In this document: positions 5,386 to 60,114 of the stretch, piece after piece
Numbering within the stretch: the stretch's first letter is position 1
How the letters are laid out: each line of letters begins with the position of its first letter
NCBI GenBank assembly: GCA_035289905.1
Contig: DATDVT010000045.1
Location: forward strand, 132 to 64,131
Length of the DNA: 64,000 bases
Origin: Candidatus Nanoarchaeia archaeon
GTDB lineage: Archaea > Nanobdellota > Nanobdellia > SCGC-AAA011-G17 > GW2011-AR18
Reading direction: 5' to 3'
The notes under the pieces: model-generated
Databases searched by the model: none
Told to the model about the DNA's origin: nothing
The model's input: the letters and a program-made list of their open reading frames with translations, nothing else
Translations under genes and position numbers: made by a program

Positions 5386-6522
5386 ATGAAAATTGGCTTT
5401 TTAATCTCTTACTTTTATCCATTTGAGGGTGGAGCAGAAAACAACTGTTTTTATCTGGCAAAAGAATTAGCTAAAAATAATGAGGTTCATATATTTACTT
5501 CAGACAGAAGAGAAAATACTATTCTAAAAAAAGAAGAAATAATCGATAATATTCATATACATAGAAGCAAAACGCTCTATAGATATAAATATTATTTAAC
5601 ATTCAATCCCTCTTTATTAACAAAAATATTGAAAACTAATTTAGATATATTACATGTTCACAGCTTTGGTTTTATTTGGCATGATTTAGTTGTTTTAATA
5701 AAAAAATTAACCTCAAAAACTATTATTTTTAATACTCCACATGGACCATTTATGGCTTTAAGTTCATACACAAAAAAAGAATTAATTTTCAAAACAATTC
5801 TAGAAAACATAGAAAAAATAACAAATAAGTCATATAATAAAATAATTCAAGTAAATCCTTATCAATACAAATGGCTAACAAAAAAAGGAATAAAAAAAAG
5901 TAATATTTTATATTTACCAAATGGAATTCCAAAAGAAACAATAATTCAAGCAAATAAGAAAGAATTTATAAAAAAATATAATTTAAAAGAAAGATTTATA
6001 ATTTCTTATCTTGGAAGAATACAAAAATATAAGGGAATTGACCAGGTCTTAGGGGTTCTACCAAATATAATAAAAATTCAACCAAATATCTTATTTTTAA
6101 TTATGGGCAAAGATGCTGGTGATTTAAAACGAATAAAAGATATAATAAAAAATAATAACTTAAAAGATTATACTATGATTATAGAAAATATAAATGAAAA
6201 AGAAAAACTAGAAGGGTTGAATGCTTCAGAAATATTTATTTTTCCCTCAGAATGGGAAGCATTTGGAATAGTAACTTTAGAAGCAATGGCACAAGGCAAT
6301 GCAATAATAGCAACAAAAACAGAAGGTTCATTATTTCTAGTAGAAAAAAACAATGGCTTACTTTATGATTATAAAAACATAAAACAACTAGAATCTAAAA
6401 TAAAAGAATTATTAAATAATAGAGAAAAACTAAAAATATTACAAAAAAATAATATTAAAAAAGCAAAAAACTTTACTTGGGATAAAATAGCTAAAAAATT
6501 AGAAAATTATTATAAAAAATGA
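5386..6522 (+). CDS. glycosyltransferase family 4 (GT-B, GT1-like)
   Basis: 378 aa; N-term FYPFEGGAE; C-terminal FPSEWEAFGIVTLEAMAQGNAIIATKTEG (E-x7-E motif region). Confidence 0.75.
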   Translation: MKIGFLISYFYPFEGGAENNCFYLAKELAKNNEVHIFTSDRRENTILKKEEIIDNIHIHRSKTLYRYKYYLTFNPSLLTKILKTNLDILHVHSFGFIWHDLVVLIKKLTSKTIIFNTPHGPFMALSSYTKKELIFKTILENIEKITNKSYNKIIQVNPYQYKWLTKKGIKKSNILYLPNGIPKETIIQANKKEFIKKYNLKERFIISYLGRIQKYKGIDQVLGVLPNIIKIQPNILFLIMGKDAGDLKRIKDIIKNNNLKDYTMIIENINEKEKLEGLNASEIFIFPSEWEAFGIVTLEAMAQGNAIIATKTEGSLFLVEKNNGLLYDYKNIKQLESKIKELLNNREKLKILQKNNIKKAKNFTWDKIAKKLENYYKK

Positions 6523-7892
6523 AAATACTTTTAATATATCCAAATATTATAGAATCGCCTAAAGATATATCACATGGTCTTGCTCAATTATCAAGTATTT
6601 TAAAAAAAGAAGATCATGAAGTACAATTAATAGATTATACATTTAAACCCACAAAAAAAGAAATTATAAACAAAGTAAAAAACTTTAACCCTGATATAAT
6701 TGGGGTTACAATAGCAACAAATGATAAAGAAAATGCATTAAATATCTTAAGGTTGATTAAACCGTATACGAATGCAAAAATAATGGGTGGTGGTTTTCAT
6801 GCAACTATAGCTCCAGAAGATCTAATTAAAGAAGAAATAATAAATGGAGTATGTCTTGGGGAAGGAGAACAAGCTTTTTTAGAATTTGTAAATAATTTAC
6901 AACATAAAAAAAAGATATCAAACATAAAAAATCTTTGGTATAAAACCCCACAAGGATTAGTAAAAAATGAAATAAGAAAATTGATTCAAGATCTTGATTT
7001 ATTACCATTTCCAGATAAATCATTATTTTACTATCAAAAATATATAGATCATAATAGGGGTTTAGCAACATTTATAACTAGCAGGGGATGTCCATATCAA
7101 TGCTCTTATTGTATAAATAAAACATTACAAAATATCTATAAAGGAGAAAAATATACAAGATTTCATTCAATAGATTACCTAATTAAAGAAATAAAAGAAG
7201 TGATTACAAAATATAAAGTAAAAGAAATAGAATTTTATGATGATACTTTTACACTAGATAAAGAAAGAATAAAAGAATTTGTTGATGTATACCCAAAAGA
7301 AATTGGTTTGCCTTTCTATATTAATGCAAGAGTAAATGCAGTAACTAAAGAAGATTTTTTATTATTAAAAAAAGCTGGTTGTGTAAGAGTTTCTATAGGG
7401 ATAGAATCAGGAGATGAAAAGATTAGAAATGAAGTTTTAAATAGAAATATGTCTAATGAACAAATTATAGAGACATTTAGATGGGCTAAAGAAGCAAAAT
7501 TAAAAACATATTCATTTAATATGATAGGAATGCCCTTTGAAACAATAAACTCAATTAAAAAAACAATAAAAATAAACCAAATAATCCAACCAGATTTTAT
7601 AGGTGTATCTTTATTTAATGCATTTAAAGGTACAGAAATATATAACTTATGTGAAAAAAATAATCTGATAAAAAATAAAACAGCAAAGTCATATTTTAGA
7701 GAATCCAATGTAAAATCTATTTCAGAGAAAAAATTACAAAAAATTAGAGAATCGTTTGGTTTTCATGTTTACAAGTATAAACGACCATTTAGAGCGACAA
7801 TAGATTTAATAGATAAAAAATTCTCAAAATATCCAGAAATACAAAAAATAAAAGAGTCTTTATTAAAATATGGCATAAGAAAATTCATTTAA
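6519..7892 (+). CDS. cobalamin-binding (class B) radical SAM protein
   Basis: 457 aa; N-terminal B12-binding Rossmann-like region MKILLIYPN...; SRGCPYQCSYC (CxxxCxxC); start overlaps upstream stop (ATGA). Confidence 0.8.
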   Translation: MKILLIYPNIIESPKDISHGLAQLSSILKKEDHEVQLIDYTFKPTKKEIINKVKNFNPDIIGVTIATNDKENALNILRLIKPYTNAKIMGGGFHATIAPEDLIKEEIINGVCLGEGEQAFLEFVNNLQHKKKISNIKNLWYKTPQGLVKNEIRKLIQDLDLLPFPDKSLFYYQKYIDHNRGLATFITSRGCPYQCSYCINKTLQNIYKGEKYTRFHSIDYLIKEIKEVITKYKVKEIEFYDDTFTLDKERIKEFVDVYPKEIGLPFYINARVNAVTKEDFLLLKKAGCVRVSIGIESGDEKIRNEVLNRNMSNEQIIETFRWAKEAKLKTYSFNMIGMPFETINSIKKTIKINQIIQPDFIGVSLFNAFKGTEIYNLCEKNNLIKNKTAKSYFRESNVKSISEKKLQKIRESFGFHVYKYKRPFRATIDLIDKKFSKYPEIQKIKESLLKYGIRKFI

Positions 7893-8907
7893 GAATATAA
7901 TCTATTATTTTTGGTAAAATATCTTCTTTATCTTGATATAATTGCTTTACCCTTTCTTTAGAATCTTTGTTATTAATTAGCTCTTTAACCTTTTCGAAGG
8001 CCTCATTTTGATTTCTATAAGAATAGACTAATCCATATTTTTCTTGCAATTCTCTAAAAACACCTGATCCATGCTTAGTTTCAACTAGACTATTACATCT
8101 TATAGCATAAGTCCCTAACAAACCGGATTCAATAGCCATTGTTTGACTATCTCCAACAAATAAATCAGAATAATATAATAAATGATGAACTTTATTTAAA
8201 TTAATCTTTAATCTATACTGCTCTAATTCTTTAGGTAATTCATCCTCAGCACTAATAAAAACTTTTCCATGTTCTTTCAAAAAATTAACAATCTTAATTA
8301 AACCTTTTCTATCAAAACCAGTACTTTGGTTTAAATCGTGAAGTGCATTCCAAGCAACAGATCTTATTACAAAAAATCTTTCTTTTTCTTTTAGATTCAA
8401 TTCATCTAAAACTCTTCGATCTGGAGCAAAATAATTGGGATGTAAATAAGCCATCTCAAAAAAACCGTTAACTTTTAAATGTTTCTTACCAAAATTATTC
8501 TCTAAAAAATCAGGCGTACAAATATGATTAGATAGATTATAAGCAACAAAACCATTCAAACTAACTGATTCACAATTTGTAAAAGAAAAACTTTTTTTTC
8601 CTAACAATTTAGACACAATAGAAGTAGTCTCGCCCGGAAAACCTAATAATACATCAATATCCCTGTCTTTAACTAAATGATAGACTAATCTAGTTCTAAT
8701 CTGCCATTCATTAAATAAACCAAAAAAACCTTTTCCAAATTCACCTGTTCTTACAAAAGTAAAACCCTCCTCTTCCAAAAGTTTAATTGCCTCAACTCTA
8801 TTTCTACTAACAATAATACAATTATGACTTTTATCTTCTAACTTCTTAATAATATTTTTAAAAAAATGAACATTTCCTGGATGAGTTATATCTATCAAAA
8901 AATTCAT
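7885..8907 (-). CDS. DUF354-like protein (GT-B-fold-like, common in archaeal glycosylation loci)
   Basis: 340 aa; N-term MNFLIDITHPGNVHFFKNIIKKLEDKSH resembles DUF354 N-terminus (IDIT.P..VhFFK.II..LE); recalled from memory, not searched. Confidence 0.4.
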   Translation of the reverse strand: MNFLIDITHPGNVHFFKNIIKKLEDKSHNCIIVSRNRVEAIKLLEEEGFTFVRTGEFGKGFFGLFNEWQIRTRLVYHLVKDRDIDVLLGFPGETTSIVSKLLGKKSFSFTNCESVSLNGFVAYNLSNHICTPDFLENNFGKKHLKVNGFFEMAYLHPNYFAPDRRVLDELNLKEKERFFVIRSVAWNALHDLNQSTGFDRKGLIKIVNFLKEHGKVFISAEDELPKELEQYRLKINLNKVHHLLYYSDLFVGDSQTMAIESGLLGTYAIRCNSLVETKHGSGVFRELQEKYGLVYSYRNQNEAFEKVKELINNKDSKERVKQLYQDKEDILPKIIDYILK

Positions 8908-8929
8908 AAAAAATTAAAATTAAACCTTC

Positions 8930-10045
8930 TTATAAAACTTCCTTTATACTTTTAACAACTAAATCCTGTTCTTTATCTGTCAAACCAACATACAAAGGAA
9001 TTATTAAAGTATTCCTAACCGCATCCTCAGTAACTGGCAAATTATAAGTATATATCTTCTTATAAATCTCACTATCATGTATTGCCATAATCCCTCTTCT
9101 AGTAGCAACTCCTTTCTTAAGCAACTCTTCCATAATCTCTACTTGAGATTTTTTAGACCTAACTCGAATAATGTAAGATTGATAAGAATGTTTAGCATAA
9201 CTAGGCACAAAAGGAACATCAATATTCTCACATGAAGAAAAAAGATCATTATATCTCAAAGCTACTTCTCTTCGTTTATTTAAAATAAAATCTGCCTTTT
9301 TCAACTGTTCTATTCCCAGAGCAGCCTGAATATCTGTCATCTTGTAATTATAACCTATTACTGGAAAATCTTCAATTACAACAGTACTAGCTGAATGTCG
9401 TTTATCACTAGAAACTGAAGCACCATGAAATCTAAATTGTCTAGCTAAATTTGCTATTGATTCCTCATTTGTTGTCAACATACCCCCTTCACCTGTAGTT
9501 ATAGACTTTCTAGGATGAAAGCTAAAAGACGTTGCCCTAGTTAATGAACCAATTCTTTGATCATTATACTCAGAACCCAAAGCACATGCAGCATCATCAA
9601 CTAAAAACAAATTATTTTCTTCACAAATTCCATTAATTTCATCTAAATCTGCACTCAGACCAACCTGATGAACTGGCATAATCGCTTTAGTTTTTTTAGT
9701 AATTACTTCAGAAATCTTTTTAGGATCTATATTATAAGTTGACCTATCAATATCCACAAAAACAGGAGTAGCACCAGCATGCACTACAGAATTGGCAGTT
9801 GCAATATAAGTATAAGAAGGAATTATGACCTCATCTCCTCTCCCAATACCTAAAGCTAATAAAGAAATATGTAAAGCAGAAGTACATGAATTAACAGCTA
9901 TTGCATATTTAGCTCCAACATAATCAGCAAATAATTTTTCAAATTCTTCAACTTTTTTACCCTGAGTAACCCATCCAGATTCTATAACTGGTTTAATTGC
10001 TTCATATTCTTCAATACCCATATAGGGTTTCATTACGGGAATCAT
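8930..10045 (-). CDS. DegT/DnrJ/EryC1/StrS-family PLP-dependent sugar aminotransferase
   Basis: 371 aa; MIPVMKPYMGIEEYEAIKPVIESGWVTQG..., AIAVNSCTSALHISL, SFHPRKSITTGEGG (PLP-lysine region). Confidence 0.85.
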   Translation of the reverse strand: MIPVMKPYMGIEEYEAIKPVIESGWVTQGKKVEEFEKLFADYVGAKYAIAVNSCTSALHISLLALGIGRGDEVIIPSYTYIATANSVVHAGATPVFVDIDRSTYNIDPKKISEVITKKTKAIMPVHQVGLSADLDEINGICEENNLFLVDDAACALGSEYNDQRIGSLTRATSFSFHPRKSITTGEGGMLTTNEESIANLARQFRFHGASVSSDKRHSASTVVIEDFPVIGYNYKMTDIQAALGIEQLKKADFILNKRREVALRYNDLFSSCENIDVPFVPSYAKHSYQSYIIRVRSKKSQVEIMEELLKKGVATRRGIMAIHDSEIYKKIYTYNLPVTEDAVRNTLIIPLYVGLTDKEQDLVVKSIKEVL

Positions 10046-10560
10046 TTTCTCATCCTCAATAATTTAGCAGGATTCCCAACAACAATAGAATAAGGTTCAA
10101 CATCTTTAGTAACAACAGAACCAGCACCGATCACAGAACCTGTCCCAATTCTTACACTTGGTAATATTATTGAACCTACACCAATATCCACATTATCCTC
10201 AATAACTACCTTCTCATAAGTTTGCTCCCTCTCAATTATTGGAGTATCAAGATTATCATCTAAAACATGTTGTAAAGTTAAAATCTTTACACAAGGACCG
10301 ATACCCACATGATTTCCTATTTCAATACCCCCTCCAGAATGAAAAAAACACATTTGACCAATCCAAGTATGACTTCCTATTTTCATATGATTATTATAGT
10401 AGCCCTTCAAATAAGTATCATGACCAACATAAACATGATTTCCAATTTCTAAATTTTCAGGGTGAAAGACTCGAACATCTCTCTCAAAAATAACATTCTC
10501 TCCTAATTTTTTTATTTTATTTACATCTAAAATTCCATCACCATGAGATCTACATAACAC
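10042..10560 (-). CDS. left-handed beta-helix (hexapeptide) sugar N/O-acetyltransferase
   Basis: 172 aa; hexapeptide repeats IGNHVYVG.., GSVIGAGSVV; C-terminus identical to adjacent paralogue. Confidence 0.75.
   Translation of the reverse strand: MLCRSHGDGILDVNKIKKLGENVIFERDVRVFHPENLEIGNHVYVGHDTYLKGYYNNHMKIGSHTWIGQMCFFHSGGGIEIGNHVGIGPCVKILTLQHVLDDNLDTPIIEREQTYEKVVIEDNVDIGVGSIILPSVRIGTGSVIGAGSVVTKDVEPYSIVVGNPAKLLRMRK
10053..10113. repeat. 61-bp perfect direct repeat (copy 1) at 3' end of acetyltransferase gene
   Basis: TCCTCAATAATTTAGCAGGATTCCCAACAACAATAGAATAAGGTTCAACATCTTTAGTAAC identical at 10571-10631. Confidence 0.8.
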
Positions 10561-11024
10561 TATTTTAACCTCCTCAATAATTTAGCAGGATTCCCAACAA
10601 CAATAGAATAAGGTTCAACATCTTTAGTAACTACCGATCCTGAACCGACTATAGCTCCTTCACCAATAGTAATCCCACACAAAATAACTGCACCAGTACC
10701 AATAGAAGCTTTCTTCTTAACATTTGTAGGGATACAATCCCAATCAGATTCATCCATTAGTTTATTATCTTCAGTAACTGATTTAGGGTATTTATCATTA
10801 ATAAAATTAACATTATGACCTATAAAACAATCATCTTCAATATGAACTCCTTCACAAATAAATGTATGGCTTTGAATCTTTACATCACTCCCTATAACTA
10901 CACCCTTCTGTATCTCAACAAATGCCCCAATCTTAGTTCGGTCTCCAATTTTACAGCCATACAAATTAACTAAAGATTCCTGAAAGATCTTAACATCAAT
11001 ACCTAAATCAACATTAACTATCAT
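10560..11024 (-). CDS. left-handed beta-helix (hexapeptide) acetyltransferase, tandem paralogue
   Basis: 154 aa; hexapeptide repeats; shares 61-bp identical 3' segment with 10042-10560. Confidence 0.75.
   Translation of the reverse strand: MIVNVDLGIDVKIFQESLVNLYGCKIGDRTKIGAFVEIQKGVVIGSDVKIQSHTFICEGVHIEDDCFIGHNVNFINDKYPKSVTEDNKLMDESDWDCIPTNVKKKASIGTGAVILCGITIGEGAIVGSGSVVTKDVEPYSIVVGNPAKLLRRLK
10571..10631. repeat. 61-bp perfect direct repeat (copy 2)
   Basis: identical to 10053-10113; flanks diverge immediately on both sides. Confidence 0.8.
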
Positions 11025-11125: not shown

Positions 11126-12103
11126 ATGCCAAAAAATAAAAACATTTTAGTAACAGGAGGGGCAGGATTTATTGGTTGTCATTTAGTTGAAGAATTAATT
11201 AAAGATAATAGAGTCACTGTAGTTGATGATTTCTCAGTAGGTTCAATGGATAATTTAAAAGAATTTGTAAACAATCCTAATTTAAAAGTAATCAAAGAAG
11301 ATATAAGAAATCAAGAAAGAATGATTGAATTAACAAAAGAAATAGATATTATTTACCATATGGCAGTAGTTTGTCTAAGAGTCTCAATAAATAATCCAAT
11401 GATTGTAGACGAAATTAATTCAACAGGTACTTTAAAAATGCTAATTGCCGCACAAAAAAATAATGTTAAAAAATTTATTTACATTTCAAGTTCAGAAGCA
11501 TATGGATCAGCACTAAAAGCTCCAATGGATGAAACTCATCCTTTAATTCCAATAACTCTTTATGGTGCAAGTAAAGCTGCTGGAGAATTATATACTCAAT
11601 CCTTTCATTTAACTTATGGTTTACCAACTGTAATAGTTAGACCATTTAATACTTATGGACCAAAAGAACATTTTGAAGGGGCATCAGGAGAAGTAATTCC
11701 TAAATTTGTAATCAGAATAATGAATAACATCACTCCAGTAATATTCGGAGATGGAGAACAAACTAGGGATTTCACATATGTAAAGGACACTGTTGACGGA
11801 ATTATTCAAGCATCAGATTGTCCAGAATTAATTGGAGAAACAGTTAACATTGCAAGGGGAGAAGAAGTATCAATAAATAGAATATTAAACATAGTTAAAA
11901 GTGTATTAAACAAAGATATACAAGCAGAATACAGAGAAGGAAGACCAGGGGATGTAAGAAGACATTATGCAGATATAAACAAGGCAAAAAAATTCTTTAA
12001 TTATCAGCCAAATACAAGTATTGAAGATGGAATAAAGAAATATATAACTTGGTTAAAAACACAAAACATAGATTTAACTAAAGATAAAACAATTAATTGG
12101 TAA
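11126..12103 (+). CDS. NAD-dependent epimerase/dehydratase (extended SDR; UDP-sugar 4-epimerase/decarboxylase-like)
   Basis: 325 aa; ILVTGGAGFIGCHLVEEL (GxxGxxG), YGASKAAGE (YxxxK). Confidence 0.8.
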   Translation: MPKNKNILVTGGAGFIGCHLVEELIKDNRVTVVDDFSVGSMDNLKEFVNNPNLKVIKEDIRNQERMIELTKEIDIIYHMAVVCLRVSINNPMIVDEINSTGTLKMLIAAQKNNVKKFIYISSSEAYGSALKAPMDETHPLIPITLYGASKAAGELYTQSFHLTYGLPTVIVRPFNTYGPKEHFEGASGEVIPKFVIRIMNNITPVIFGDGEQTRDFTYVKDTVDGIIQASDCPELIGETVNIARGEEVSINRILNIVKSVLNKDIQAEYREGRPGDVRRHYADINKAKKFFNYQPNTSIEDGIKKYITWLKTQNIDLTKDKTINW

Positions 12104-37236: not shown

Positions 37237-37237
37237 A

Positions 37238-40217: not shown

Positions 40218-40307
40218 TTTAAATATTACAATTCGTTCAATTTAATTCATAATTTTTAAAAATTGATTAGCCAATTCCATTATAAATAATTTATAAACAT
40301 TTAGTTT

Positions 40308-41825: not shown

Positions 41826-41859
41826 TTTATTAATTTGCGCATTTTATAAAATATAGATT

Positions 41860-53404: not shown

Positions 53405-54865
53405 ATGAAATTTGCTTTAATATCTCTACAACAAAATACAACTGATCCCCCTCTGGGGTTAGCTTATTTATCTGCATATCTTAAAAAATATAGTAAGAAT
53501 AATGAAATAAAAATAATTGATAAAGAAGATATTTTAGAAAATATAAAAAACAATAATTACGATTTAATTGGGATTAGTGCAATGACTACTGATTTCAAAA
53601 GAGCTAACTCATATGCAAAAGAAATTAAAAAAATCTCAAAGGCTAAATTGATTATAGGTGGGGTGCATATTACAATAATGCCACATCATCTAGAAGAATC
53701 TGAATTTGATATTGGGATTATCGGTGAGGGAGAAAAAACAATTTTAGAACTAATAAATCTGTTTAATAGAGATAATGAACTAACTGAAGATAATTTAAAA
53801 AATATCAAAGGCTTAATTTTCAAAACAAAGAACTATATGTATACAACCCCACCCAGAGAACTAATCACAAATTTAGACGAAATTCCTTATCCAGATAGAA
53901 ATTCTTTGAAAATGAAAGAAATCTATTTATTGCCTCAGATTAAAGCTGGAAGTGACAATATCGGAATCTTTACAACAATATTTACTTCTAGGGGTTGTCC
54001 ATATAACTGTCCATTTTGTTCCTCAAGTAGCTATTGGAATAAAAAAATTAGATTTCATTCAGCAAATTATGTCATAAATGAAATTGAATTATTATATAAA
54101 AAATATAAAGTAGAAGGCATTCATATTTCAGATGATTTATTCATTGCCGATAAAAAGCGTGTTAAAGAAATTGCAAATAAATTAGAAGAAAACGGACTAA
54201 ATAAAAAAATTAGATTTAGCTTATTACTTAGATCTAATCTTGTGGATGAAGATTTAATTAAAGATCTTAAAAAAATGAACGTTACCCATGTTGGTTTTGG
54301 ATTCGAATCTGGGTCTACAAAAATATTAAAATATCTTAAAAAAAATACCTTAACCGTTGAAGATCATAAAAACGCTGTAAAATTATGCAAAAAATATAAT
54401 TTTCAACTAAGTGGTTCTTTTTTAATTGGTTGTCCAAACGAAACAAAAGAGGATATCTTAGAAACATTCAATTTCATAGAAGAACTAAACCTAAATCAGA
54501 TGAATGTAAATCAATTAATTCCTATGCCAAAAACAGATATATGGAATTATGCAAAAGAAGAAGGTTTAGTTAATGATTCTTTTGAATTTACTATAAAAAA
54601 TTTATCAGATTTATTTGTACATAATTATAATCCCTCCTTAAGATTATCTAAAGAGATTAAGGAGAGTGAATTCAAAGAATTATTCGATAAAATTCAAGAA
54701 AGAATAAAAAATAAAAAATCTAATAATTTTTCATTAAAATTAACTTATCTCAAATATCTTAAAAATCCTAGATTTATCTTAAAATTATTTAAAAGACGAA
54801 ATAGGATTTTATTCTTGTTAGGTATAAAGAAAAAAGATATAGAGTATAAAACAGAGAATAGTTAG
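53405..54865 (+). CDS. cobalamin-binding class B radical SAM protein
   Basis: 486 aa; SRGCPYNCPFC; divergent from MTase 52570-53331. Confidence 0.75.
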   Translation: MKFALISLQQNTTDPPLGLAYLSAYLKKYSKNNEIKIIDKEDILENIKNNNYDLIGISAMTTDFKRANSYAKEIKKISKAKLIIGGVHITIMPHHLEESEFDIGIIGEGEKTILELINLFNRDNELTEDNLKNIKGLIFKTKNYMYTTPPRELITNLDEIPYPDRNSLKMKEIYLLPQIKAGSDNIGIFTTIFTSRGCPYNCPFCSSSSYWNKKIRFHSANYVINEIELLYKKYKVEGIHISDDLFIADKKRVKEIANKLEENGLNKKIRFSLLLRSNLVDEDLIKDLKKMNVTHVGFGFESGSTKILKYLKKNTLTVEDHKNAVKLCKKYNFQLSGSFLIGCPNETKEDILETFNFIEELNLNQMNVNQLIPMPKTDIWNYAKEEGLVNDSFEFTIKNLSDLFVHNYNPSLRLSKEIKESEFKELFDKIQERIKNKKSNNFSLKLTYLKYLKNPRFILKLFKRRNRILFLLGIKKKDIEYKTENS

Positions 54866-56388
54866 CCTTTCTTTAATTTCTTTTTAATCAAACTTAAAAT
54901 ATAAATATCGTTTTTGTCAAAAGAGCTAGTTATCAGTAATAAAATAAATACAGAAAATAAAAACAAAATTGAAAAAATTACAAGGAGATAGATATTGGAA
55001 ATCATTACATATTTTTTAATATTAAAAAATAAAACTGAAATAATTAAAGTAATAAATAATACTTTTAAATAAGAACCCTTGAATGGTGTTGCTTTCAAAC
55101 AAATATAACTTTGAATAAAATTCAATAATCCCCACAAAACAAGAACAAAGCTTGTAGATATTGCAGCTCCAATTATCCCATATTTAGGAATCAAAAGAAA
55201 ATTCAATACGCCATTAATTAGAAGAGCAATTATAGAATTATAGAAAATTAATTTTGACTTTTTAAAAATTAATAAAACATTTTGTGCCGGATGAAAGATT
55301 AAACTTATAAAAAAGCCAACCAATAAAATGATTAAAGCTAAATAACCAGAAGCATATTCAGCACCAAAGAATATTGATAAAACTTCTTTTGAGTATATAA
55401 TAAATAATGTAACAAGAACCAAATTAATTATAAATATCCATTTTGTTACTGTTTTATATAAATCAATAAATTCTTCTCTTTTGTTTCCTATATATAAGGC
55501 CATCAAAATCGGTAAAAATAAAGCAAGAATAGAAGAAGGTGCAGTAAACATAAGCTGTGCAGTTGGAGATGCAGCATTATAAATACCAACATCGGTTTCA
55601 GTTTTATAATGGCCTATCATAAACGTATCAAGAGATAAAGTTAAAGTAAAAAATAAACTAACAAAAACTAAAGGAAAAGAATATCTTAAAATATCTTTAA
55701 AAATTCCTTTTTTATCTATACTTACTTTATATTTTCTCAAAATAGTTTGTAATAAAAGATATCCAATTAACATGCTAATCACAATAGAAATAGTGTATGC
55801 TAAAGAGATTGCCAAAATTCCAAAACCAATTGAAACAAAAATAAAAGCAAGAATAACTTTGGAAAAAGGTTCTGCGATATTTTTAGTATAAACTTCATAT
55901 TTAGGGATTTGAAAAGCCCTAAATGAAGCATAAAACATCCTTGAAATAGTAACAAATGGAATTGTAATTGAAACTATCCTAATAATTGCACTTAACTTTT
56001 CTTGGTTTAAATTTGGAAAAAATTGCGCACAAATAAAATCTGAGAAGATAAATAATAATACAGAAACTAAAAATGCTAAAATAAAAGTAATTTTCATAGA
56101 AGTATAGATTACCATCTTAACTTTACTATAATCATTTTTTTCTTTAAAATAAGAAACATACCTTAAAACACCATGATCCAAACCAATAGTAATAAAAACA
56201 GAAATAAAAACAGTTAAAGAAACTCCCAATGTTAAAAGACCATAATCAGCCATTCCAGAACGTGCAGCAATAATTCTAAAAATATATGAAAACAATTTAG
56301 ATAAAAAAGATCCAATAAAAATTATACCTGTACCAATAGTCAAATTTTTTACAGAGTCTTCAGTGTTCATCTTAAACTTAAAAATCAA
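54862..56388 (-). CDS. Wzx-type polysaccharide/oligosaccharide flippase (MOP superfamily)
   Basis: 508 aa; polytopic; N-terminal region like PF01943-type proteins. Confidence 0.55.
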   Translation of the reverse strand: MIFKFKMNTEDSVKNLTIGTGIIFIGSFLSKLFSYIFRIIAARSGMADYGLLTLGVSLTVFISVFITIGLDHGVLRYVSYFKEKNDYSKVKMVIYTSMKITFILAFLVSVLLFIFSDFICAQFFPNLNQEKLSAIIRIVSITIPFVTISRMFYASFRAFQIPKYEVYTKNIAEPFSKVILAFIFVSIGFGILAISLAYTISIVISMLIGYLLLQTILRKYKVSIDKKGIFKDILRYSFPLVFVSLFFTLTLSLDTFMIGHYKTETDVGIYNAASPTAQLMFTAPSSILALFLPILMALYIGNKREEFIDLYKTVTKWIFIINLVLVTLFIIYSKEVLSIFFGAEYASGYLALIILLVGFFISLIFHPAQNVLLIFKKSKLIFYNSIIALLINGVLNFLLIPKYGIIGAAISTSFVLVLWGLLNFIQSYICLKATPFKGSYLKVLFITLIISVLFFNIKKYVMISNIYLLVIFSILFLFSVFILLLITSSFDKNDIYILSLIKKKLKKG

Positions 56389-56593
56389 AACTAATTAAAT
56401 GTTTCTTTTTTAAAATAGAATGTAATGAGTATTTGGAAAAATTTATTTAAAATGTTCATAATAGGATTTCTATAAATATTAACATTCTAATTTATCGATG
56501 CTTTTACTAACTCTTTTTAAAATATACTTCCATTAAATGCTTAGGTTTTCCATAAATAAGAATCAAAATTAAAAGTAAATAAAGCTTGCCCTG

Positions 56594-59233
56594 TTAAAAA
56601 CCTGGTAAAACTTTTTCTACACCTGGGTCAGGTAATTTAGTATCTCTCATCCATGGCTTGTCTATTTGATCAGCTGGATAATTAACCTTCCATATTTTAA
56701 TTGGCCCTATAGTTCCTCCTTGATAGATTATTAAAGGGACAGTATTTGAACCATCATATACTTTTTCAAAATAAGAATTAACTTCATCATATAGATATAG
56801 ATGCGCAAACAAAGATAATCTAACATCTTTAGAGAGATATAAACCAGCACCAACAGAATTACCACTTCCATCGGCATTAACTGAGGGTAGTATCCTTAAA
56901 CAACCTTCTAAACCTTCTCCATCAAAAGTAAATTCACGATCTTTTATAAAAATACAATTTAAAGGAATTTGATATAATTGATTATTATAAACAACATGTG
57001 CTAAAGGCTTACTAATGCTATTATTATCCAAAGTATCAGCACTTAAAGCTCCTTTATCAACAGGAACTTGAATACCAATAATCCCTGCTTGTGTTCTAGG
57101 AAACATAATACCTTGATAAAGAAAATCATCATCTAAAGCATATGATCCAGAATAAGTATACACCATAGAATTATTTAATTCAAAACTCTTAGAAAGATCT
57201 AAGTTAAAAACAGTGATCCAACTAAATCTATCATAATACTTATCAGCTCCTATAGAAGAGAAAGCAGGATATTTACCAATCTCATCACCAATCATAAGAA
57301 TATAACTTACATTATTGGCATATGTTAAATCTAAAGCATCAGTATAATTTTGGGCAGTCAATAAATATCTACCAACAAAATGGTTTATTGCGTATCTAGC
57401 ATTTCCACCATCACTAATTGTTGCTCTCTCTCCACCAACCTGAACCCAATATCCATAATCCCACCAATGTGCAAAAACAGCATTTTTAGGGGTATTCTCT
57501 CTAACCCATTGCATAGCAAATTGCCATTGAGCATTATAACTCGGTCCAGTAGCTGAAACCTCTGCTGCTGCAACGTTATACATATTCCACCATAGTGGTA
57601 CAAACAAAATCAAAATCAAAAGATAGACAACTTTTTTAACAATATCTATTTTTAACAAAGAAGCCTTCAAAAATAGAGTGTAAATGACATAACCTAAACC
57701 AATAACAACAATTGGAGCTAAAAACATAAGCAAACGTATAGCACTCCTAGCAGAAACAAAAGAGACTAACCCCCAAACTAAGAAAAATAAAATCCCAAAA
57801 TCAATCCTATTAAAATCATATATTTTATTTAAGATATCTCTCCGATAGACTCCATAAAATAGAACAAAGATAAGACTAGACAAAGATAAAAAATACAACC
57901 ACAAAGACTGAGAAGAAATTCCATTAAAAACAGAATCAGGACTATAACGACTGTATAATATTCCAACTAAAGCAAAGGCATAAAAAAAAGCGCAGATATA
58001 ACCTGTAATCTTATTTAGCTTTCTGAACTGTTCATAAACACAATAAATTAATCCAAAAAACAAAATATAAAAAACAAATCTATTAAGTTCACCAATTATA
58101 TCTCTTAGATAAGGTTGCTTAGACTCAGCAACAGTCAAAGCCCATCTTGTTTCACTAAAAGGAGAAACTAAACTAGAAAATAAGGTATTAAATAAAGATG
58201 ATAATCCATTAAAACCCCTAATTATAATAAAAAGAAAGAAAATAAAACAAAGACTAAAAATAAAAGACCAAAAAACATTAGGTAATTTTTTCTGATAATT
58301 CCCTAAAAAGTTAAACCGATTTTTATCTTTACTAACAAAATGAATTGTAGCCCCTAAAAAAACAAAAAAAATCGCTTGTGAAGGCAAGTCATTTAAAAAA
58401 GAAAGTATTTGAAATTTGTGTGGGGCACCTATAAAACGAACAAAATAAAATATTAAAAACCATAACCAACTACAATATAATAATTTTTTGTCTAATCTAT
58501 TCCATAAAGCTAAACATAAAAAATATAGGGTAAAGGCGTAAAGTAAAATTCCTATTCCACCCCAAACTGCACCCATTAATCCTAAAAATAAACCAGAAAT
58601 CCCAGCATATATTAAAGATTTTCTAAAGTTTTCTTCTTTGAAGTAACTAACAAAATAATACAAACTAATAAACATTAAAGTAAAAGCTAAAGCTTCCTTA
58701 TCTGAAAAACCTGAAAGAGTTCTATGTAAAAAAGATGGAATCACTGTTAAAAAAGCAGTAGCTATTAAAGCTATCCATTTATTAAATACCTTTCTAACTA
58801 ATAAAAAGAAAAAAATAGACCCTAAAGCAAAAGCGATTGGGGGATAAATCACATCTACGTATTCTATAGTAATATTAACACTAAAAAAATGTAAAATTTT
58901 ATATAAATATGCAATAAAATAAGAAAGTAATCCAAATTCTCCTGTAGGATTATAACCTATAGGAAAATATCTTGCCCAATCATATTGCATCATACTTCCA
59001 TGTTCAACAATATAACGAGCATACTTCAAAATAACAAAAGAATCTAACTCCATAGGAATATATTTATTTGTAGTTACATCAATTAATAACTTTAAATTTA
59101 GAGTTCTAATATAATAACCAAGACCAATAATAAAAGCTAAAATTCCATAAATAATCCAATCTATTTTATATTTACCTTTAGTAATATAATTTTTTATCTT
59201 TTTTATTCTCTCCTCAATAACCTCTTCGCCCAT
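56594..59233 (-). CDS. aglB: archaeal oligosaccharyltransferase AglB (STT3 family)
   Basis: 879 aa; 13-TM-like N-terminal region; WWDYG motif (AHWWDYGYWVQ); large C-terminal extracytoplasmic domain. Confidence 0.9.
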   Translation of the reverse strand: MGEEVIEERIKKIKNYITKGKYKIDWIIYGILAFIIGLGYYIRTLNLKLLIDVTTNKYIPMELDSFVILKYARYIVEHGSMMQYDWARYFPIGYNPTGEFGLLSYFIAYLYKILHFFSVNITIEYVDVIYPPIAFALGSIFFFLLVRKVFNKWIALIATAFLTVIPSFLHRTLSGFSDKEALAFTLMFISLYYFVSYFKEENFRKSLIYAGISGLFLGLMGAVWGGIGILLYAFTLYFLCLALWNRLDKKLLYCSWLWFLIFYFVRFIGAPHKFQILSFLNDLPSQAIFFVFLGATIHFVSKDKNRFNFLGNYQKKLPNVFWSFIFSLCFIFFLFIIIRGFNGLSSLFNTLFSSLVSPFSETRWALTVAESKQPYLRDIIGELNRFVFYILFFGLIYCVYEQFRKLNKITGYICAFFYAFALVGILYSRYSPDSVFNGISSQSLWLYFLSLSSLIFVLFYGVYRRDILNKIYDFNRIDFGILFFLVWGLVSFVSARSAIRLLMFLAPIVVIGLGYVIYTLFLKASLLKIDIVKKVVYLLILILFVPLWWNMYNVAAAEVSATGPSYNAQWQFAMQWVRENTPKNAVFAHWWDYGYWVQVGGERATISDGGNARYAINHFVGRYLLTAQNYTDALDLTYANNVSYILMIGDEIGKYPAFSSIGADKYYDRFSWITVFNLDLSKSFELNNSMVYTYSGSYALDDDFLYQGIMFPRTQAGIIGIQVPVDKGALSADTLDNNSISKPLAHVVYNNQLYQIPLNCIFIKDREFTFDGEGLEGCLRILPSVNADGSGNSVGAGLYLSKDVRLSLFAHLYLYDEVNSYFEKVYDGSNTVPLIIYQGGTIGPIKIWKVNYPADQIDKPWMRDTKLPDPGVEKVLPGF

Positions 59234-59241
59234 CTTAACAC

Positions 59242-60114
59242 CTAAAATAATTGCGGGGTAATAAATACTTCTACTAAAGCACCCACCAATAATAAACCAA
59301 CCGCAATTAATAATAATACTAATGCATCAAACATTATATTCTTAAATTTTTTGGTGTTAGCGCCATGGTTTATAATACCAACAGAAATAATTCCACCTGC
59401 TAAACCTCCTATAAAATAAGCAACAATCTCAAATACACCGTGGACCATATATCTCATTAGACTTAGAGAAAAAATATGCAAATAAACAGCCACTTTATTA
59501 AAACCAAAAAAACCTGCATAATTCCCTAACAAATTTCTAAAATAGGTTCCCATAGCAGCTGAAATAACAGATGCATTCCAAGTTAAAATAAAAATAGAAC
59601 CAGCACCAAAGAAAAAGGCAAAAAATACACAAAAAATCAATACTTTAACATTATTACTCAATATACTTAAAAAAGTATCTAAGCCAAGTCCATAGTTTAT
59701 AGTACCAGCAGTCATTATTTTAATAACATTAGAATTAATTGATTCTATAGTAGCTAATTGTGTATTAAACATCATATTTACAGTATTTTGAGGCAAAAAA
59801 ATAAACCACATTGAAAAACTAACAACGAAACCTAAAAATAAACATGTTAAAAATAATATTGCTTTACTATGTTCTACAAGAATAGTTTTCTCAGAATCTT
59901 CTCTCCAATCTTCTTCTTCTTCTTCTTCTATAGTAGCATACATCAAAGGCACAGAAACAACAACGGTTAAAAAAACCATTATTAAAGAAGTCTGTGCTTT
60001 AAAAACCCATAAACTAAACAATACAGCCATACTTGAAAATAATAAACCTAAAAGAAATAACTTCAAAGGCTTTTGTTTGGCTGTTTGTGGATCAATTAAA
60101 GATTCTAAAACCAT
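59242..60114 (-). CDS. polytopic membrane protein (unknown; SpoIIM/DUF95-like?) with poly-Glu loop
   Basis: 290 aa; EEEEEEDWRED encoded by (GAA/GAG)n tract near 59905-59930; 8-nt gap to aglB suggests co-transcription. Confidence 0.35.
   Translation of the reverse strand: MVLESLIDPQTAKQKPLKLFLLGLLFSSMAVLFSLWVFKAQTSLIMVFLTVVVSVPLMYATIEEEEEEDWREDSEKTILVEHSKAILFLTCLFLGFVVSFSMWFIFLPQNTVNMMFNTQLATIESINSNVIKIMTAGTINYGLGLDTFLSILSNNVKVLIFCVFFAFFFGAGSIFILTWNASVISAAMGTYFRNLLGNYAGFFGFNKVAVYLHIFSLSLMRYMVHGVFEIVAYFIGGLAGGIISVGIINHGANTKKFKNIMFDALVLLLIAVGLLLVGALVEVFITPQLF

Follow-up and report, generated by a model that had tools for sequence, protein, structure and literature searches.

AprD4, a radical-SAM enzyme that dehydrates an aminoglycoside sugar, does not bind cobalamin according to a 2026 review (PMC12931638). 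HpnJ, for which ring contraction of lipid-linked glucosamine has been proposed, and BchE are not methylases. Among solved folds AprD4 is the closest to one of the class-B-type radical-SAM proteins considered here, and HpnJ and BchE are the family models that score best with these proteins; no description of their present arrangement with glycosyltransferase (GT) genes was found in the published literature. The arrangement occurs in a 64,000-nucleotide stretch of DNA (the window) from an uncultivated DPANN (Nanoarchaeia/Woesearchaeota-like) archaeon, within what is probably a composite cell-surface glycosylation locus.

The segment 5386–60114 (~55 kb) holds 46 genes, a quarter of which (11; Table 1) encode radical-SAM proteins, giving a binomial P of 1.4e-9 against an assumed background of 2%. 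The preliminary description had listed eight class-B and three SPASM genes together with AglB, an AglH-like phosphotransferase and two Wzx flippases, and Pfam recovered every one of them in place. The eight class-B-type proteins score above the gathering scores for both the B12-binding and Radical_SAM domains, the B12 domain of 43556 being marginal (33.9 bits versus a cut-off of 32.1), and CX4CX2C replaces CX3CX2C in three of them. The tally of about nine GT2/GT4 genes comes down to five GT2 and three GT4, that of at least four GT-C-like genes holds with three PMT_2 and one GT-C-like member, and one of three claimed SAM methyltransferases (1630–2277, minus strand) falls outside the segment, leaving two. 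Seven of the eight class-B genes share a strand with a GT, Wzx or methyltransferase gene that they overlap or approach to within 25 nt; apparent operons that include a GT, flippase or methyltransferase gene take in almost all of the class-B genes and one SPASM gene (15377) or more. Misassembly is unlikely, since 46.6–64 kb of the window matches contigs of several independent metagenomes at 99.7–100% identity and the exact 37951 protein is recorded on 15 contigs.

Table 1. Genes of the segment 5386–60114 and the evidence for their assignment
Feature	Coordinates	Strand	Evidence
GT4 (GT-B) glycosyltransferase	5386..6522	+	Glycos_transf_1 111 bits, Glyco_transf_4 63 bits; 4-nt overlap with 6519 gene
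Class-B-type radical SAM, CX3CX2C (residue 191)	6519..7892	+	Pfam; NCBIfam HpnJ 137 bits (cut-off 578)
DUF354 protein, possible GT-B-like enzyme	7885..8907	-	Pfam DUF354 51 bits; no NCBIfam match
DegT-family sugar aminotransferase	8930..10045	-	Pfam DegT_DnrJ_EryC1 405 bits
Hexapeptide-repeat acyltransferase	10042..10560	-	Pfam Hexapep
Hexapeptide-repeat acyltransferase	10560..11024	-	Pfam Hexapep 70.7 bits
SDR nucleotide-sugar dehydratase/epimerase	11126..12103	+	Pfam GDP_Man_Dehyd 201 bits, Epimerase 181 bits
Radical SAM-SPASM, among nucleotide-sugar genes	12238..13254	-	Pfam Radical_SAM + SPASM
DegT-family sugar aminotransferase	13369..14472	+	Pfam 416 bits
PF03706 flippase-like membrane protein, 8 TM	14469..15380	+	LPG_synthase_TM 121 bits; TIGR00374 66 bits (> cut-off 43)
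Radical SAM-SPASM, last in run GT-C / class B / SPASM	15377..16366	-	Pfam Radical_SAM + SPASM
Class-B-type radical SAM, CX4CX2C (CTYRMCKFC)	16417..17847	-	Pfam; 49% identity to 37951 protein
GT-C (PMT_2) membrane glycosyltransferase, 12 TM	17873..19567	-	Pfam PMT_2 44.8 bits
Radical SAM-SPASM	19599..20672	+	Pfam Radical_SAM + SPASM; NCBIfam best NirJ2 98 bits (cut-off 500)
GT2 with TM segments	20597..21661	+	Pfam Glyco_trans_2_3 / Glycos_transf_2
Class-B-type radical SAM	21682..23091	+	Pfam; HpnJ 200 bits, < cut-off
Class-B-type radical SAM, directly downstream of GT2 24517	23077..24516	-	Pfam; HpnJ 217 bits, < cut-off
GT2, AglJ / dolichyl-phosphate-hexose-synthase type	24517..25398	-	NCBIfam AglJ 166 bits (cut-off 325), Dol-P hexose transferase 111, PpgS 79
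GT-C (PMT_2) membrane glycosyltransferase	25488..27095	+	Pfam PMT_2 48 bits
GT-C (PMT_2/PMT) membrane glycosyltransferase	27140..28660	+	Pfam PMT_2 62.6 bits, PMT 35.4 bits
Short soluble GT2	28638..29405	+	Pfam Glycos_transf_2 97.8 bits
GT2 with C-terminal TM segments	29361..30323	-	Pfam
DUF362 protein, C-terminal CP...CxxCxxC motif	31292..32497	-	Pfam DUF362 142 bits; also kept in relative L088
Alkaline-phosphatase-superfamily phosphodiesterase	32865..33902	-	Pfam Phosphodiest 46 bits
Soluble 423-aa protein, nucleotidyltransferase-like GGFGRGEG...DYD motif	34405..35676	-	Sequence
Class-B-type radical SAM, 1 nt upstream of GT2 37238	35851..37236	+	Pfam; BchE 205 bits, < cut-off
Short GT2, polyprenyl-phosphate-sugar-synthase type	37238..37954	+	NCBIfam partial: PgfS, ArnC, AglJ, Dol-P hexose transferase, all < cut-offs
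Class-B-type radical SAM, CX4CX2C, anchor of conserved module	37951..39351	-	HpnJ 249 bits (cut-off 578)
Class-I SAM methyltransferase, 4-nt overlap with 37951 gene	39348..40217	-	Pfam Methyltransf_23/11
GT-C-like membrane protein, 10 TM, Cys-rich C-terminal domain	40308..41825	-	hhalign vs PMT_2 set
PF03706 flippase-like membrane protein, 8 TM	41860..42795	-	Pfam 153 bits; TIGR00374 121 bits (> cut-off 43); HpnL 37 bits, < cut-off
Polysaccharide deacetylase	42847..43572	+	Pfam Polysacc_deac_1 70 bits; weak ArnD match, E 6.7e-4
Class-B-type radical SAM, CX4CX2C, last in run AglH / Wzx / radical SAM	43556..45013	-	Pfam; HpnJ 192 bits, < cut-off
Wzx-type flippase, 13 TM	44976..46232	-	Pfam Polysacc_synt 49.5 bits
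AglH/WecA/MraY-family polyprenyl-phosphate sugar-1-phosphate transferase	46233..47228	-	Pfam Glycos_transf_4 (PF00953) 115 bits
GT4 glycosyltransferase	47349..48503	-	Pfam
GT4 glycosyltransferase	48581..49771	+	Pfam
DegT-family sugar aminotransferase	49746..50855	-	Pfam 313 bits
NeuD/PglB/VioB-family sugar N-acetyltransferase	50852..51484	-	NCBIfam TIGR03570 200.6 bits (> cut-off 160.8)
SDR nucleotide-sugar dehydratase/epimerase	51521..52549	-	Pfam Epimerase 137 bits
Class-I SAM methyltransferase	52570..53331	-	Pfam Methyltransf_11 69 bits
Class-B-type radical SAM	53405..54865	+	Pfam; BchE 153 bits, < cut-off
Wzx/MATE-type flippase	54862..56388	-	Pfam Polysacc_synt 96 bits
AglB oligosaccharyltransferase	56594..59233	-	Pfam STT3 63.7 bits; WWDYG at residue 590; 13 hydrophobic segments
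SpoIIM-like membrane protein, conserved upstream neighbour of AglB	59242..60114	-	Pfam SpoIIM 46 bits

The assignment of AglB is also supported by conserved columns in an alignment. For the GT-C-like protein 40308, comparison with the PMT_2 set gave a probability of 78.7% (E 1.7e-5), Pfam PTPS_related stayed below its cut-off (E 7.7e-4), and D43 and D47 near the N-terminus are invariant in an alignment. The 423-aa protein 34405 had no family match in Pfam or NCBIfam.

Functions unrelated to glycans would be an alternative for the radical-SAM genes. All eleven proteins stay below the cut-off of every curated family, be it a lipid, cofactor or RiPP family, and this includes the best-scoring models for the class-B proteins, HpnJ and BchE. 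The AlphaFold2 model of the 37951 protein (pLDDT 90) is closest among solved folds to AprD4 (TM 0.77), followed by TsrM, MgmA, OxsB, CysS and TokK. Cobalamin synthesis is not generally expected of DPANN archaea. Considering this together with the cobalamin-free AprD4 fold, the cobalamin binding ascribed earlier to the class-B enzymes is doubtful, being read from the domain assignment. C-methylation, put forward as the first example of their chemistry, is not favoured, because the best-scoring family models are non-methylases; by analogy with AprD4, HpnJ or OxsB, dehydration, ring contraction or oxidation, none of which adds a methyl group, would be about as likely.

The 37951 protein has homologues at 39–53% identity in 79 GTDB species, spread over many phyla of Archaea and Bacteria; DPANN, ANME, Omnitrophota, Elusimicrobia and Scalindua are among the groups represented. 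By raw count, 66 of the 79 loci carry at least one GT gene; in the 42 that span 15 kb or more, one or more GT genes occur in 39, two or more in 30, and two or more class-B genes in 25. It should be mentioned that neighbours were annotated by phmmer with the window's own proteins and one Pfam scan on crude ORF calls, and that, since GT genes are common in genomes, part of this co-occurrence is expected by chance. In the Pfam scan, the 135 immediate neighbours most often belong to PMT_2 (21), class-I methyltransferase (18), GT2 (13), B12-radical-SAM (10), PF03706 (7) and GT1/4 (7), and a methyltransferase of the 39348 type adjoins the radical-SAM gene in 19 loci. The ordered module GT-C / methyltransferase / class B / PF03706 / GT2 recurs in four loci (L043, L046, L061, L064), and the same partners appear in Pfam-annotated contexts of a Woesearchaeote, a CPR Pacebacterium and an Omnitrophica bacterium. 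Natural fusions reinforce the association, although the giant fusions among them were predicted from metagenomes and could contain errors of assembly or gene calling: B12-radical-SAM with a GT (P0211), two B12-radical-SAM domains with two methyltransferases and two GT2 (P0226), class B with SPASM (P0227), radical SAM with methyltransferase (P0189, P0092), and two B12-radical-SAM domains with DUF362, Fer4 and three GT4 (P0197). The SPASM enzyme 12238 belongs to a rare family: no more than 10 homologues turned up, of which the next best is 31% identical, and distant homologues sit among sugar genes. The module GT2 / flippase-like / GT-C / methyltransferase / radical SAM at 37238–42795 is likely to be the central, conserved part of a pathway that is widespread and uncharacterised.

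The SpoIIM–AglB adjacency is kept in most of 80 related loci. AglB lies near the 37951 family in L010, L013, L054, L056 and L075, which are among the loci of that family, and in 17 of the 80 AglB-anchored loci. Of 42 related AglB loci that are 12 kb or longer, 13 have a class-B gene within 10 kb; as two thirds lack one, radical tailoring would be an accessory rather than a core feature. One relative, L088, keeps the AglH / Wzx / radical-SAM order of the 43556 run and the 423-aa protein beside a radical-SAM gene, and lacks the 35851 gene by blastn. The phosphodiesterase 32865 and the 423-aa protein occur together in L088, L102, L108, L144 and L150.

The preliminary description held that the radical-SAM enzymes serve the synthesis of a glycan or lipid-linked glycan in a system with no described likeness. 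Family assignment, strong co-conservation, fusions and the literature agree with this, and of the two observations named there as counting against it, membership in glycan-unrelated families and a lack of co-conservation with the GT genes, neither was made. The implied uniqueness is not supported, nor are cobalamin and C-methylation as written: the pairing of radical-SAM and sugar-transfer genes is widespread and recurrent in uncultivated archaea and bacteria, with up to eight class-B genes in 20 kb in one locus (L082).

The most likely role of the radical-SAM enzymes is tailoring of sugars during assembly of the N-glycan or lipid-linked sugars; their presumed substrate, product and acceptor are all read from gene neighbours. 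Homology identifies a supply of nucleotide sugars, in which N-acetylated amino-deoxy-hexoses are made by SDR dehydratases, DegT aminotransferases and acetyltransferases of the NeuD/PglD type, and an N-glycosylation core. In this core the AglH-like enzyme begins a glycan on dolichol, which GT4 and GT2 enzymes lengthen on the cytoplasmic face; Wzx-type proteins flip it for transfer to Asn by AglB. Lacking any predicted TM segment, the class-B and SPASM proteins are placed in the cytoplasm, where the eight B12-domain and three SPASM enzymes may alter unactivated C-H positions of nucleotide sugars or lipid-linked sugars, with class-I methyltransferases presumably acting beside them. The DUF362/Fe-S protein (31292) is a candidate redox partner that may supply electrons, in view of its C-terminal Cys motif and the DUF362 and Fer4 domains fused to class-B radical SAM and GT4 in P0197. 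Family type and gene order suggest in addition a decoration route at the outer face. A short GT2 would load a monosaccharide on polyprenyl phosphate, the PF03706 flippase-like protein would carry the loaded sugar over the membrane, and a PMT_2 GT-C would attach it to an external glycan, protein or lipid. Such modules would follow the logic of ArnC/ArnT or GtrA/B.

The gene content between 5386 and 60114 was established from a six-frame ORF listing combined with a Pfam scan of every ORF of at least 100 aa in that interval, in a window with a G+C content of about 27%. Eleven of the 46 genes found there encode radical-SAM proteins, a density far above chance at an assumed background of 2% (binomial P 1.4e-9). 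Eight of these are class B proteins, in which a B12-binding domain precedes the Radical_SAM domain, and three are SPASM proteins. The coordinates given in the preliminary description were borne out by the ORF listing and the Pfam scans, and one of its counts has to be corrected: only two of the three SAM methyltransferases that it placed in the locus lie inside, the third being outside this range at 1630-2277.

Features of the locus and its borders; a gene given by a single number is named by its start in the window
Feature	Coordinates (strand)	Evidence
Class B radical SAM (8)	6519, 16417, 21682, 23077, 35851, 37951, 43556, 53405	N-terminal B12-binding and Radical_SAM (Pfam)
SPASM radical SAM (3)	12238, 15377, 19599	Radical_SAM and SPASM (Pfam)
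AglB	56594-59233	STT3 63.7 bits (cut-off 24.5); WWDYG at residue 590; 13 hydrophobic segments
SpoIIM-family membrane protein	59242-60114 (-)	
AglH/WecA-type phosphotransferase	46233	PF00953, 115 bits
Wzx-type flippases (2)	44976, 54862	Polysacc_synt
GT2 (5) and GT4 (3)	within 5386-60114	Pfam
GT-C (3)	17873, 25488, 27140	PMT_2 above cut-off
GT-C-like 10-TM protein	40308	hhalign against PMT_2 set, 78.7% probability
PF03706 flippase-like proteins (2)	14469, 41860	TIGR00374 above cut-off
Five-gene module	37238-42795	GT2 37238, class B 37951, methyltransferase 39348, GT-C-like 40308, PF03706 41860
423-aa protein	34405-35676 (-)	
Phosphodiesterase	32865-33902 (-)	
98-aa ORF	32553-32849 (-)	
DUF362 protein	31292-32497 (-)	
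IS240-like DDE transposase	2638-3546 (+)	
Sm-like (LSM) gene, 78 aa	30371-30607 (-)	annotated LSM in the L088 counterpart
Insertion, about 660 nt	30645-31260 (-)	missing from L088
HAD-family hydrolase in two 108-aa ORFs	61258-61584, 61586-61912 (+)	different frames

The remaining genes of the locus encode a polysaccharide deacetylase, two class-I methyltransferases, a DUF362 protein, a phosphodiesterase and a 423-aa protein without a family. There are also two apparent amino-sugar gene sets, each with a dehydratase, one or more aminotransferases and one or more acetyltransferases, and one acetyltransferase scores above the NeuD/PglB/VioB cut-off of NCBIfam. With an STT3/WWDYG AglB, an initiating transferase, cytoplasmic glycosyltransferases (GTs) and a flippase candidate, the locus has the predicted components of archaeal AglB N-glycosylation; the AglB scores 113 against the cut-off of 450 of the narrower NCBIfam subfamily archaeo_STT3. 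Seven of the eight class B genes overlap, or lie at most 25 nt from, a GT, Wzx or methyltransferase gene read in the same direction. The host is a DPANN archaeon, a placement that follows the NCBI name of the source of an identical 37951 protein, "Candidatus Nanoarchaeia archaeon". The exact AglB is present on 11 metagenome contigs, and the retrieved contigs are 99.7-100% identical to the window over 46.6-64 kb, showing that the assembly is reproducible. No tRNA and no Rfam family was detected within the window. It should be mentioned that the HAD-family hydrolase beyond the locus is split in the same way in four independent metagenome contigs (L001-L004), and the split is therefore not a sequencing error in the window. 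At the other border, a HAD hydrolase and a transaldolase separate the DDE transposase from the first glycosylation gene, which starts about 1.8 kb downstream of it.

The eight class B proteins share pairwise identities of 25-49%, which marks them as old paralogues and not recent duplicates. All eight carry the Pfam Radical_SAM domain (70-101 bits) and a B12-binding domain above the gathering score, marginally so in 43556 (33.9 against 32.1). The three-cysteine [4Fe-4S] motif is CX3CX2C in five of them and CX4CX2C in three (16417-17847, 37951-39351 and 43556-45013; for example CGYGKCTFC), and both forms occupy the same alignment columns. The longer spacing is kept in the sub-clade nearest to 37951 and 16417, including its bacterial members (such as the homologous proteins P0088 and P0107), and family members farther from this sub-clade have the canonical CX3CX2C. 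The GTDB representative set contains no homologue of 37951 above 53% identity. A viral origin of the 37951 family was considered and rejected, as a profile scan of viral contigs gave only two distant matches of 25% identity.

The preliminary description had held that placement of the radical-SAM proteins in families of glycan-unrelated function would speak against its reading. No such placement was obtained, since none of the 11 reached a curated cut-off in an NCBIfam scan that covered them and 20 other proteins. HpnJ (TIGR03471) was the top match for five of the eight class B proteins, with full-length alignments, the best score being 248.7 bits for 37951 and the others 137-217 bits, against a cut-off of 577.6. 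The best class B scores for the other models were 205 bits for BchE (cut-off 481), 158 bits for the ladderane model rSAM_ladder_B12 (360), 127 bits for the MCR glutamine methylase MJ_0865 (360), 130 bits for the RiPP C-methylase rSAM_ocin_1 (282) and 121 bits for HpnR (650). The SPASM proteins reached about 45 bits for Tes (cut-off 450) and at best 98 bits for NirJ2 (500) and 86 bits for the tungsten cofactor oxidoreductase maturase (380). Scores of the radical-SAM proteins against BzaD, PhpK, KedN5 and TsrM were likewise well below the cut-offs. Direct assignment to an HpnJ, BchE, methylase or maturase family was rejected on these scores.

The AlphaFold (AF2) model of 37951 (pLDDT 90.3) has the Rossmann and TIM-barrel architecture of class B enzymes. 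The nearest solved structure is AprD4 (TM 0.77-0.79, E 4e-24), followed by TsrM, MgmA, OxsB, CysS and TokK, and a profile search of PDB sequences agrees, with AprD4 as the best match at 127 bits. AprD4 is a radical-SAM 1,2-diol dehydratase whose structure has the sugar substrate paromamine bound; it has a Rossmann-like domain and yet binds no cobalamin (PMC12931638). HpnJ and BchE form a cluster and are both non-methylases (PMC9204698). The class B label used earlier for the eight proteins thus stands as a statement about architecture, by Pfam and the AF2 model, and their use of cobalamin and transfer of methyl groups stay putative. Family scores and fold matches lean toward the non-methylase relatives HpnJ, BchE and AprD4 by margins that are not decisive, and, if these enzymes tailor sugars, methylation and non-methylating radical chemistry are about equally likely. 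A PterinBD-DUF4346 domain occurs in four of 135 immediate neighbours of a radical-SAM gene in related loci (L009-L082); a partner that binds pterin could be a hint that a corrinoid receives a methyl group.

The SPASM domains score 26.4, 38.6 and 24.0 bits (cut-off 21.5), with 8-12 cysteines per protein. The gene 12238 (12238-13254, minus strand) sits between a dehydratase (11126-12103) and an aminotransferase (13369-14472). Its family is rare, with 10 matches and a next best identity of 31%, and its distant relatives are found among cytidylyltransferase, TylF-type methyltransferase, DegT, GT and class B genes. The gene 15377 is the last of a GT-C / class B / SPASM run. None of the three genes has an adjacent precursor-peptide gene or falls in a curated maturase family. 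On its two sides, 12238 is separated from its neighbours by 135 and 115 nt; 15377 overlaps one neighbour by 4 nt and lies 50 nt from the other, and 19599 lies 31 nt from one neighbour and overlaps the other. With at most 135 nt on either side, there is no room for a precursor gene.

To evaluate co-conservation, a profile of the 37951 family was scanned over one genome per GTDB species, giving 534 confirmed matches, and the best 79 of these loci were taken with 10-kb flanks, their ORFs being annotated with the window's own proteins. The sources of these best 79 are archaeal (Woese-, Nano-, Pace-, Aenigm-, Iain- and Altiarchaeota, ANME/Methanosarcinales, Thaumarchaeota) as well as bacterial (Omnitrophota, Elusimicrobia, Scalindua, Nitrospinota, Deltaproteobacteria, Lentisphaerae). 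The preliminary description would have been undermined by a lack of co-conservation with GT genes; at least one GT-type gene accompanies the radical-SAM gene in 66 of the best 79 loci. Among the 42 of these that span at least 15 kb, 39 have at least one GT and 30 at least two, and at least two class B genes are present in 25 and at least three in 12. One related locus, L082, holds eight class B genes and a SPASM gene within 20 kb. Pfam scans of the 135 immediate neighbours found PMT_2 (21), class-I methyltransferase (18), GT2 (13), B12-binding radical SAM (10), PF03706 (7), GT1/4 (7) and SDR (5), and the same partners appear in the annotated contexts of three distant genomes, from Woesearchaeota, CPR Pacebacteria and Omnitrophica. 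The ordered set GT-C / methyltransferase / class B / PF03706 / GT2 found in four loci (L043, L046, L061 and L064) is that of the five-gene module of the window. A strict count of the five-part module with a crude gene caller gave three loci, fewer than the ordered pattern seen by locus annotation, so its frequency is only roughly known. Asparagine-synthase-like amidotransferases were seen near methyltransferase and radical-SAM genes in a Woesearchaeote (L006, 6145-8097), a CPR bacterium (L007, 8141-10153, directly adjoining) and an Omnitrophica bacterium (L008, 2778-4652); the window has none.

The relative L088 keeps most of the cluster at 74-82% DNA identity, with a 37951 homologue that is 82% identical in protein sequence. 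The 35851-37238 segment is missing from it and an SDR gene is additional, indicating gain and loss of modules of the kind seen at other surface-polysaccharide loci. Two overlapping ORFs in different frames, of 56 and 155 aa, lie in the insertion missing from L088, the shorter one having a hydrophobic segment at its N-terminus; the insertion may represent a frameshifted gene, or code for a small protein that is secreted or anchored. Neither the 155-aa ORF nor the 423-aa protein gave a Pfam or NCBIfam match even at E 0.1. The Sm-like gene lies beside the insertion, in the middle of the cluster. The minus-strand block comprising the 423-aa protein, the phosphodiesterase, the 98-aa ORF and the DUF362 protein is kept in L088, and four further loci (L102, L108, L144 and L150) likewise pair the 423-aa protein with the phosphodiesterase. 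The 423-aa protein is soluble and has a nucleotidyltransferase-like GGFGRGEG...DYD motif; the block may add a phospho-substituent to the glycan.

An AglB profile scan of metagenome contigs gave 80 loci, with AglB identities of 28-43%. A class B gene lies within 10 kb of AglB in 17 of the 80. Among the 42 loci of at least 12 kb, 13 have at least one class B gene within that distance and three have at least two. The predicted radical-SAM tailoring is therefore a frequent, though not universal, accessory of these DPANN N-glycosylation loci. The arrangement is not peculiar to the window, which stands at the rich end without being the record holder. A sub-module of PF03706, GT2, class B, deacetylase, 423-aa protein and phosphodiesterase recurs in five loci (L102, L108, L114, L144 and L150). 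The order SpoIIM-AglB-AglH-Wzx-GT2 is common to many of the 80 loci, and its SpoIIM-AglB-AglH-Wzx core seems specific to this DPANN group. The gene directly upstream of AglB encodes a SpoIIM-family protein both in the window and in most of the 80 loci (L094-L173), which suggests an unrecognised partner of AglB in this lineage.

An HMM search with the 37951-family profile over 1.84 billion representatives matched 32,954 clusters (E <= 1e-30), the clusters being defined at 50% identity, and many matches were very long. Fusions were read from Pfam scans of six long matches and of P0092. P0197 (2633 aa) combines two B12-binding radical-SAM units with DUF362, Fer4 and three GT4 domains, P0226 (1879 aa) two such units with two methyltransferase and two GT2 domains, and P0211 (1467 aa) two units with a GT; P0227 (1696 aa) joins class B to SPASM, P0189 (701 aa) radical SAM to a methyltransferase, and P0092 (774 aa) a methyltransferase to radical SAM. 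The fusion partners are exactly the partner types present in the window. As predicted domain architectures, these fusions are the strongest argument that the class B enzymes and their partners act in one pathway. The fusion of DUF362 to a class B unit suggests a role for the DUF362 protein of the window, which carries CP...CxxCxxC at its C-terminus and is a candidate Fe-S redox partner. The giant predicted proteins (P0197, P0226, P0227 and P0211; 1,467-2,633 aa) could be real multi-enzyme proteins or gene-calling artefacts. Other long matches extend to 2,331 aa, with eight radical-SAM-like stretches in P0132.

We propose that the radical-SAM enzymes probably tailor sugars within the biosynthesis of a glycan or a lipid-linked sugar. 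Homology shows proteins for nucleotide-sugar supply, for the AglH-initiated assembly of a lipid-linked glycan, for its flipping and for its transfer by AglB. Several Arn/Gtr-like modules would operate in addition, as judged from family type and gene order: a short GT2 (24517, AglJ/Dol-P-hexose-synthase-like) would charge polyprenyl phosphate with a sugar, a PF03706 protein would translocate the charged carrier, and a PMT_2 GT-C would transfer the sugar outside. The radical-SAM enzymes and methyltransferases would act on the cytoplasmic side, on the nucleotide sugar or on the carrier, as their neighbours, their fusions and their lack of TM segments suggest. The acceptor may be an N-glycan, another surface polymer or a glycolipid. 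The nearest precedents are HpnI/K/J/L, ArnC/D/T, aminoglycoside tailoring (AprD4, GenK) and the archaeal Cds. We also raise, as a tentative and rather doubtful extension, that the five-gene module may be a new cross-domain pathway in which a sugar is radically rearranged or C-branched on a lipid carrier to yield, for example, a carbocycle of the cyclitol type, a deoxy unit or a C-methyl unit, before it is flipped across and fixed to the surface.

The cross-phylum neighbours and the fusions are fitted less well by the alternatives than by sugar tailoring. It is improbable that the targets are instead lipids, namely the dolichol or polyprenol carrier or host-scavenged membrane lipids, which would be methylated, cross-linked or remodelled at the head group, with the PF03706, GT2 and GT-C genes making glycolipids and not glycoprotein glycans. 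The best family models do belong to lipid-pathway enzymes, HpnJ and rSAM_ladder_B12 (up to 158 bits); the PF03706 proteins resemble lipid flippases, with weak HpnL and GlcN-PG flippase matches; the methyltransferase 39348 scores best against UbiG/UbiE, enzymes of prenylated substrates; and the precedents Cds and HpnJ act on lipid-linked head groups. However, all scores for lipid families (HpnJ, ladderane, Tes, HpnR) are far under the cut-offs, the Pfam scans found no isoprenoid or lipid biosynthesis gene in the cluster, and the fusion partners are GT2, GT4 and methyltransferases and no lipid enzymes. Since HpnJ and Cds act on the sugar moiety, lipid targets and sugar tailoring overlap for any substrate that is a lipid-linked sugar.

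SPASM enzymes are typically peptide maturases, and partial matches to WgkB, PapB, the mycofactocin maturase and rSAM_ocin_1 (up to 130 bits), together with the possible TM-anchored or secreted protein of the insertion, could point to C-methylation, epimerisation or thioether linkage of surface or S-layer proteins, pilins or a RiPP precursor, the glycosylation genes merely sharing a surface-biogenesis island with the radical-SAM genes. Peptide targets are quite unlikely, as the cut-offs of RiPP families are not reached, the SPASM flanks are too short for a precursor gene, the fusions join GT domains, and the neighbours in the best 79 of 534 loci are GTs, methyltransferases and sugar enzymes, not peptidases, transporters or precursors. 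That the locus is only a variable island of unrelated accessory genes, radical-SAM genes included, with no shared pathway is disfavoured and very unlikely. The transposase by the cluster edge, the Sm-like housekeeping gene within the cluster and the modules gained or lost relative to the 74-82%-identical L088 would agree with such an island, but in both domains, and in phyla far apart, the radical-SAM genes have the same partner families around them, operon spacing is tight in the window, and covalent fusions join the same partner set.

No description of radical-SAM-rich glycosylation clusters was found in the literature on DPANN, Woesearchaeota, Omnitrophota, AglB, polysaccharide or cobalamin contexts, and a search combining radical SAM, AglB and N-glycosylation in archaea returned no paper. 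One preprint on Omnitrophota goes no further than noting giant proteins that contain both radical-SAM and GT1 domains. The substrates listed in reviews of this enzyme class are confined to natural products, cofactors, lipids and proteins, and the words glycan, polysaccharide and sugar are absent from a 2026 review of B12-dependent radical-SAM enzymes (PMC12931638). Judging from the gene content of the surveyed loci, the arrangement is common in uncultivated lineages. If the enzymes do tailor glycans, a biological setting would be at hand for tens of thousands of "B12-binding radical SAM" sequences that lack annotation, and protein and surface glycosylation in prokaryotes would be seen to include radical C-H chemistry. 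The genomes of DPANN archaea are very small. A 55-kb surface-glycan locus is thus a large investment, which a possible need for scavenged cobalamin would enlarge, and the surface glycan is therefore probably central to the host-associated lifestyle. Should the five-gene module be such a pathway, stacked modules would give unusual and highly variable surface glycans in the ultra-small, host-dependent DPANN, CPR and Omnitrophota, where these would matter for host attachment or virus evasion. The module is compact enough for heterologous reconstitution.

We have compared the locus with known systems. The hopanoid pathway brings together HpnI (GT2), HpnK (deacetylase), HpnJ (B12-domain radical SAM) and HpnL (PF03706 membrane protein), and the same protein types stand side by side here as GT2 37238, HpnJ-like 37951, PF03706 41860 and deacetylase 42847. 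HpnJ has been proposed to rearrange a sugar that is already on the lipid. In contrast to that pathway, scores in the locus are far too low for HpnJ (249 against a cut-off of 578) and HpnL (37-42 against 196), the host is archaeal, and no hopanoid gene (shc, hpnH, hpnG etc.) is found in the window. The deacetylase 42847 is a PF01522 protein, which we take to be a different family from HpnK, and to our knowledge the GT-C transferase and class-I methyltransferase present in this locus are not part of the hpn set.

The logic of the Arn (ArnC/ArnD/ArnE-F/ArnT), Gtr and haloarchaeal AglD/AglJ/AglS steps is also shared: these steps use a GT2 polyprenyl-phosphate-sugar synthase, for which the locus has candidates, a GT-C transferase and a small flippase, and optionally a deacylase that acts on the lipid-linked sugar. 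The GT2 24517 matches AglJ with 166 bits (cut-off 325) and the Dol-P hexose transferase with 111 bits (cut-off 375); 37238 partially matches AglJ, the Dol-P-hexose transferase and ArnC, and both 37238 and 28638 are weaker than 24517. The deacetylase 42847 matches ArnD weakly. Small multi-TM flippases (TIGR00374) and GT-C proteins of the ArnT-type family PMT_2 are encoded alongside. Compared to Arn and Gtr, no curated cut-off is reached, and the flippase-like protein is PF03706, not ArnE/F or GtrA. We know of no radical-SAM step in the Arn, Gtr or Agl outer-face systems. Radical-SAM enzymes do act on sugar C-H bonds in the pathways of AprD4, GenK/GenD1, BtrN, DesII and OxsB, and these aminoglycoside and deoxysugar pathways share DegT aminotransferases, SDR enzymes and class-I N/O-methyltransferases with the locus. 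The dehydratase / SPASM / aminotransferase order at 12238 resembles the DesI-DesII-DesV logic of desosamine biosynthesis, its match to DesII being weak (47 bits, radical-SAM core only). The AprD4-type enzymes differ in belonging to actinomycete secondary metabolism of soluble small molecules, whereas here the context is an AglB/Wzx/GT-C surface glycan with up to eight paralogues, and identity is only about 20%. The Sulfolobus calditol synthase Cds, likened here by description, is likewise an archaeal radical-SAM enzyme and has been proposed to turn a lipid-linked hexose head group into a carbocycle; it belongs to membrane-lipid biosynthesis in thermoacidophiles and not to an AglB cluster. The agl clusters of Haloferax volcanii, Methanococcus and Sulfolobus share with the locus a WWDYG AglB, an AglH-type initiator, GT2 and GT4 enzymes, flippase candidates, methyltransferases and amino-sugar pathways, and no radical-SAM protein is known to us among the characterised Agl enzymes, against 11 of 46 genes here. 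The locus is of a known kind, a surface/N-glycosylation cluster, to which an undescribed and widely conserved layer of probable radical-SAM tailoring is added.
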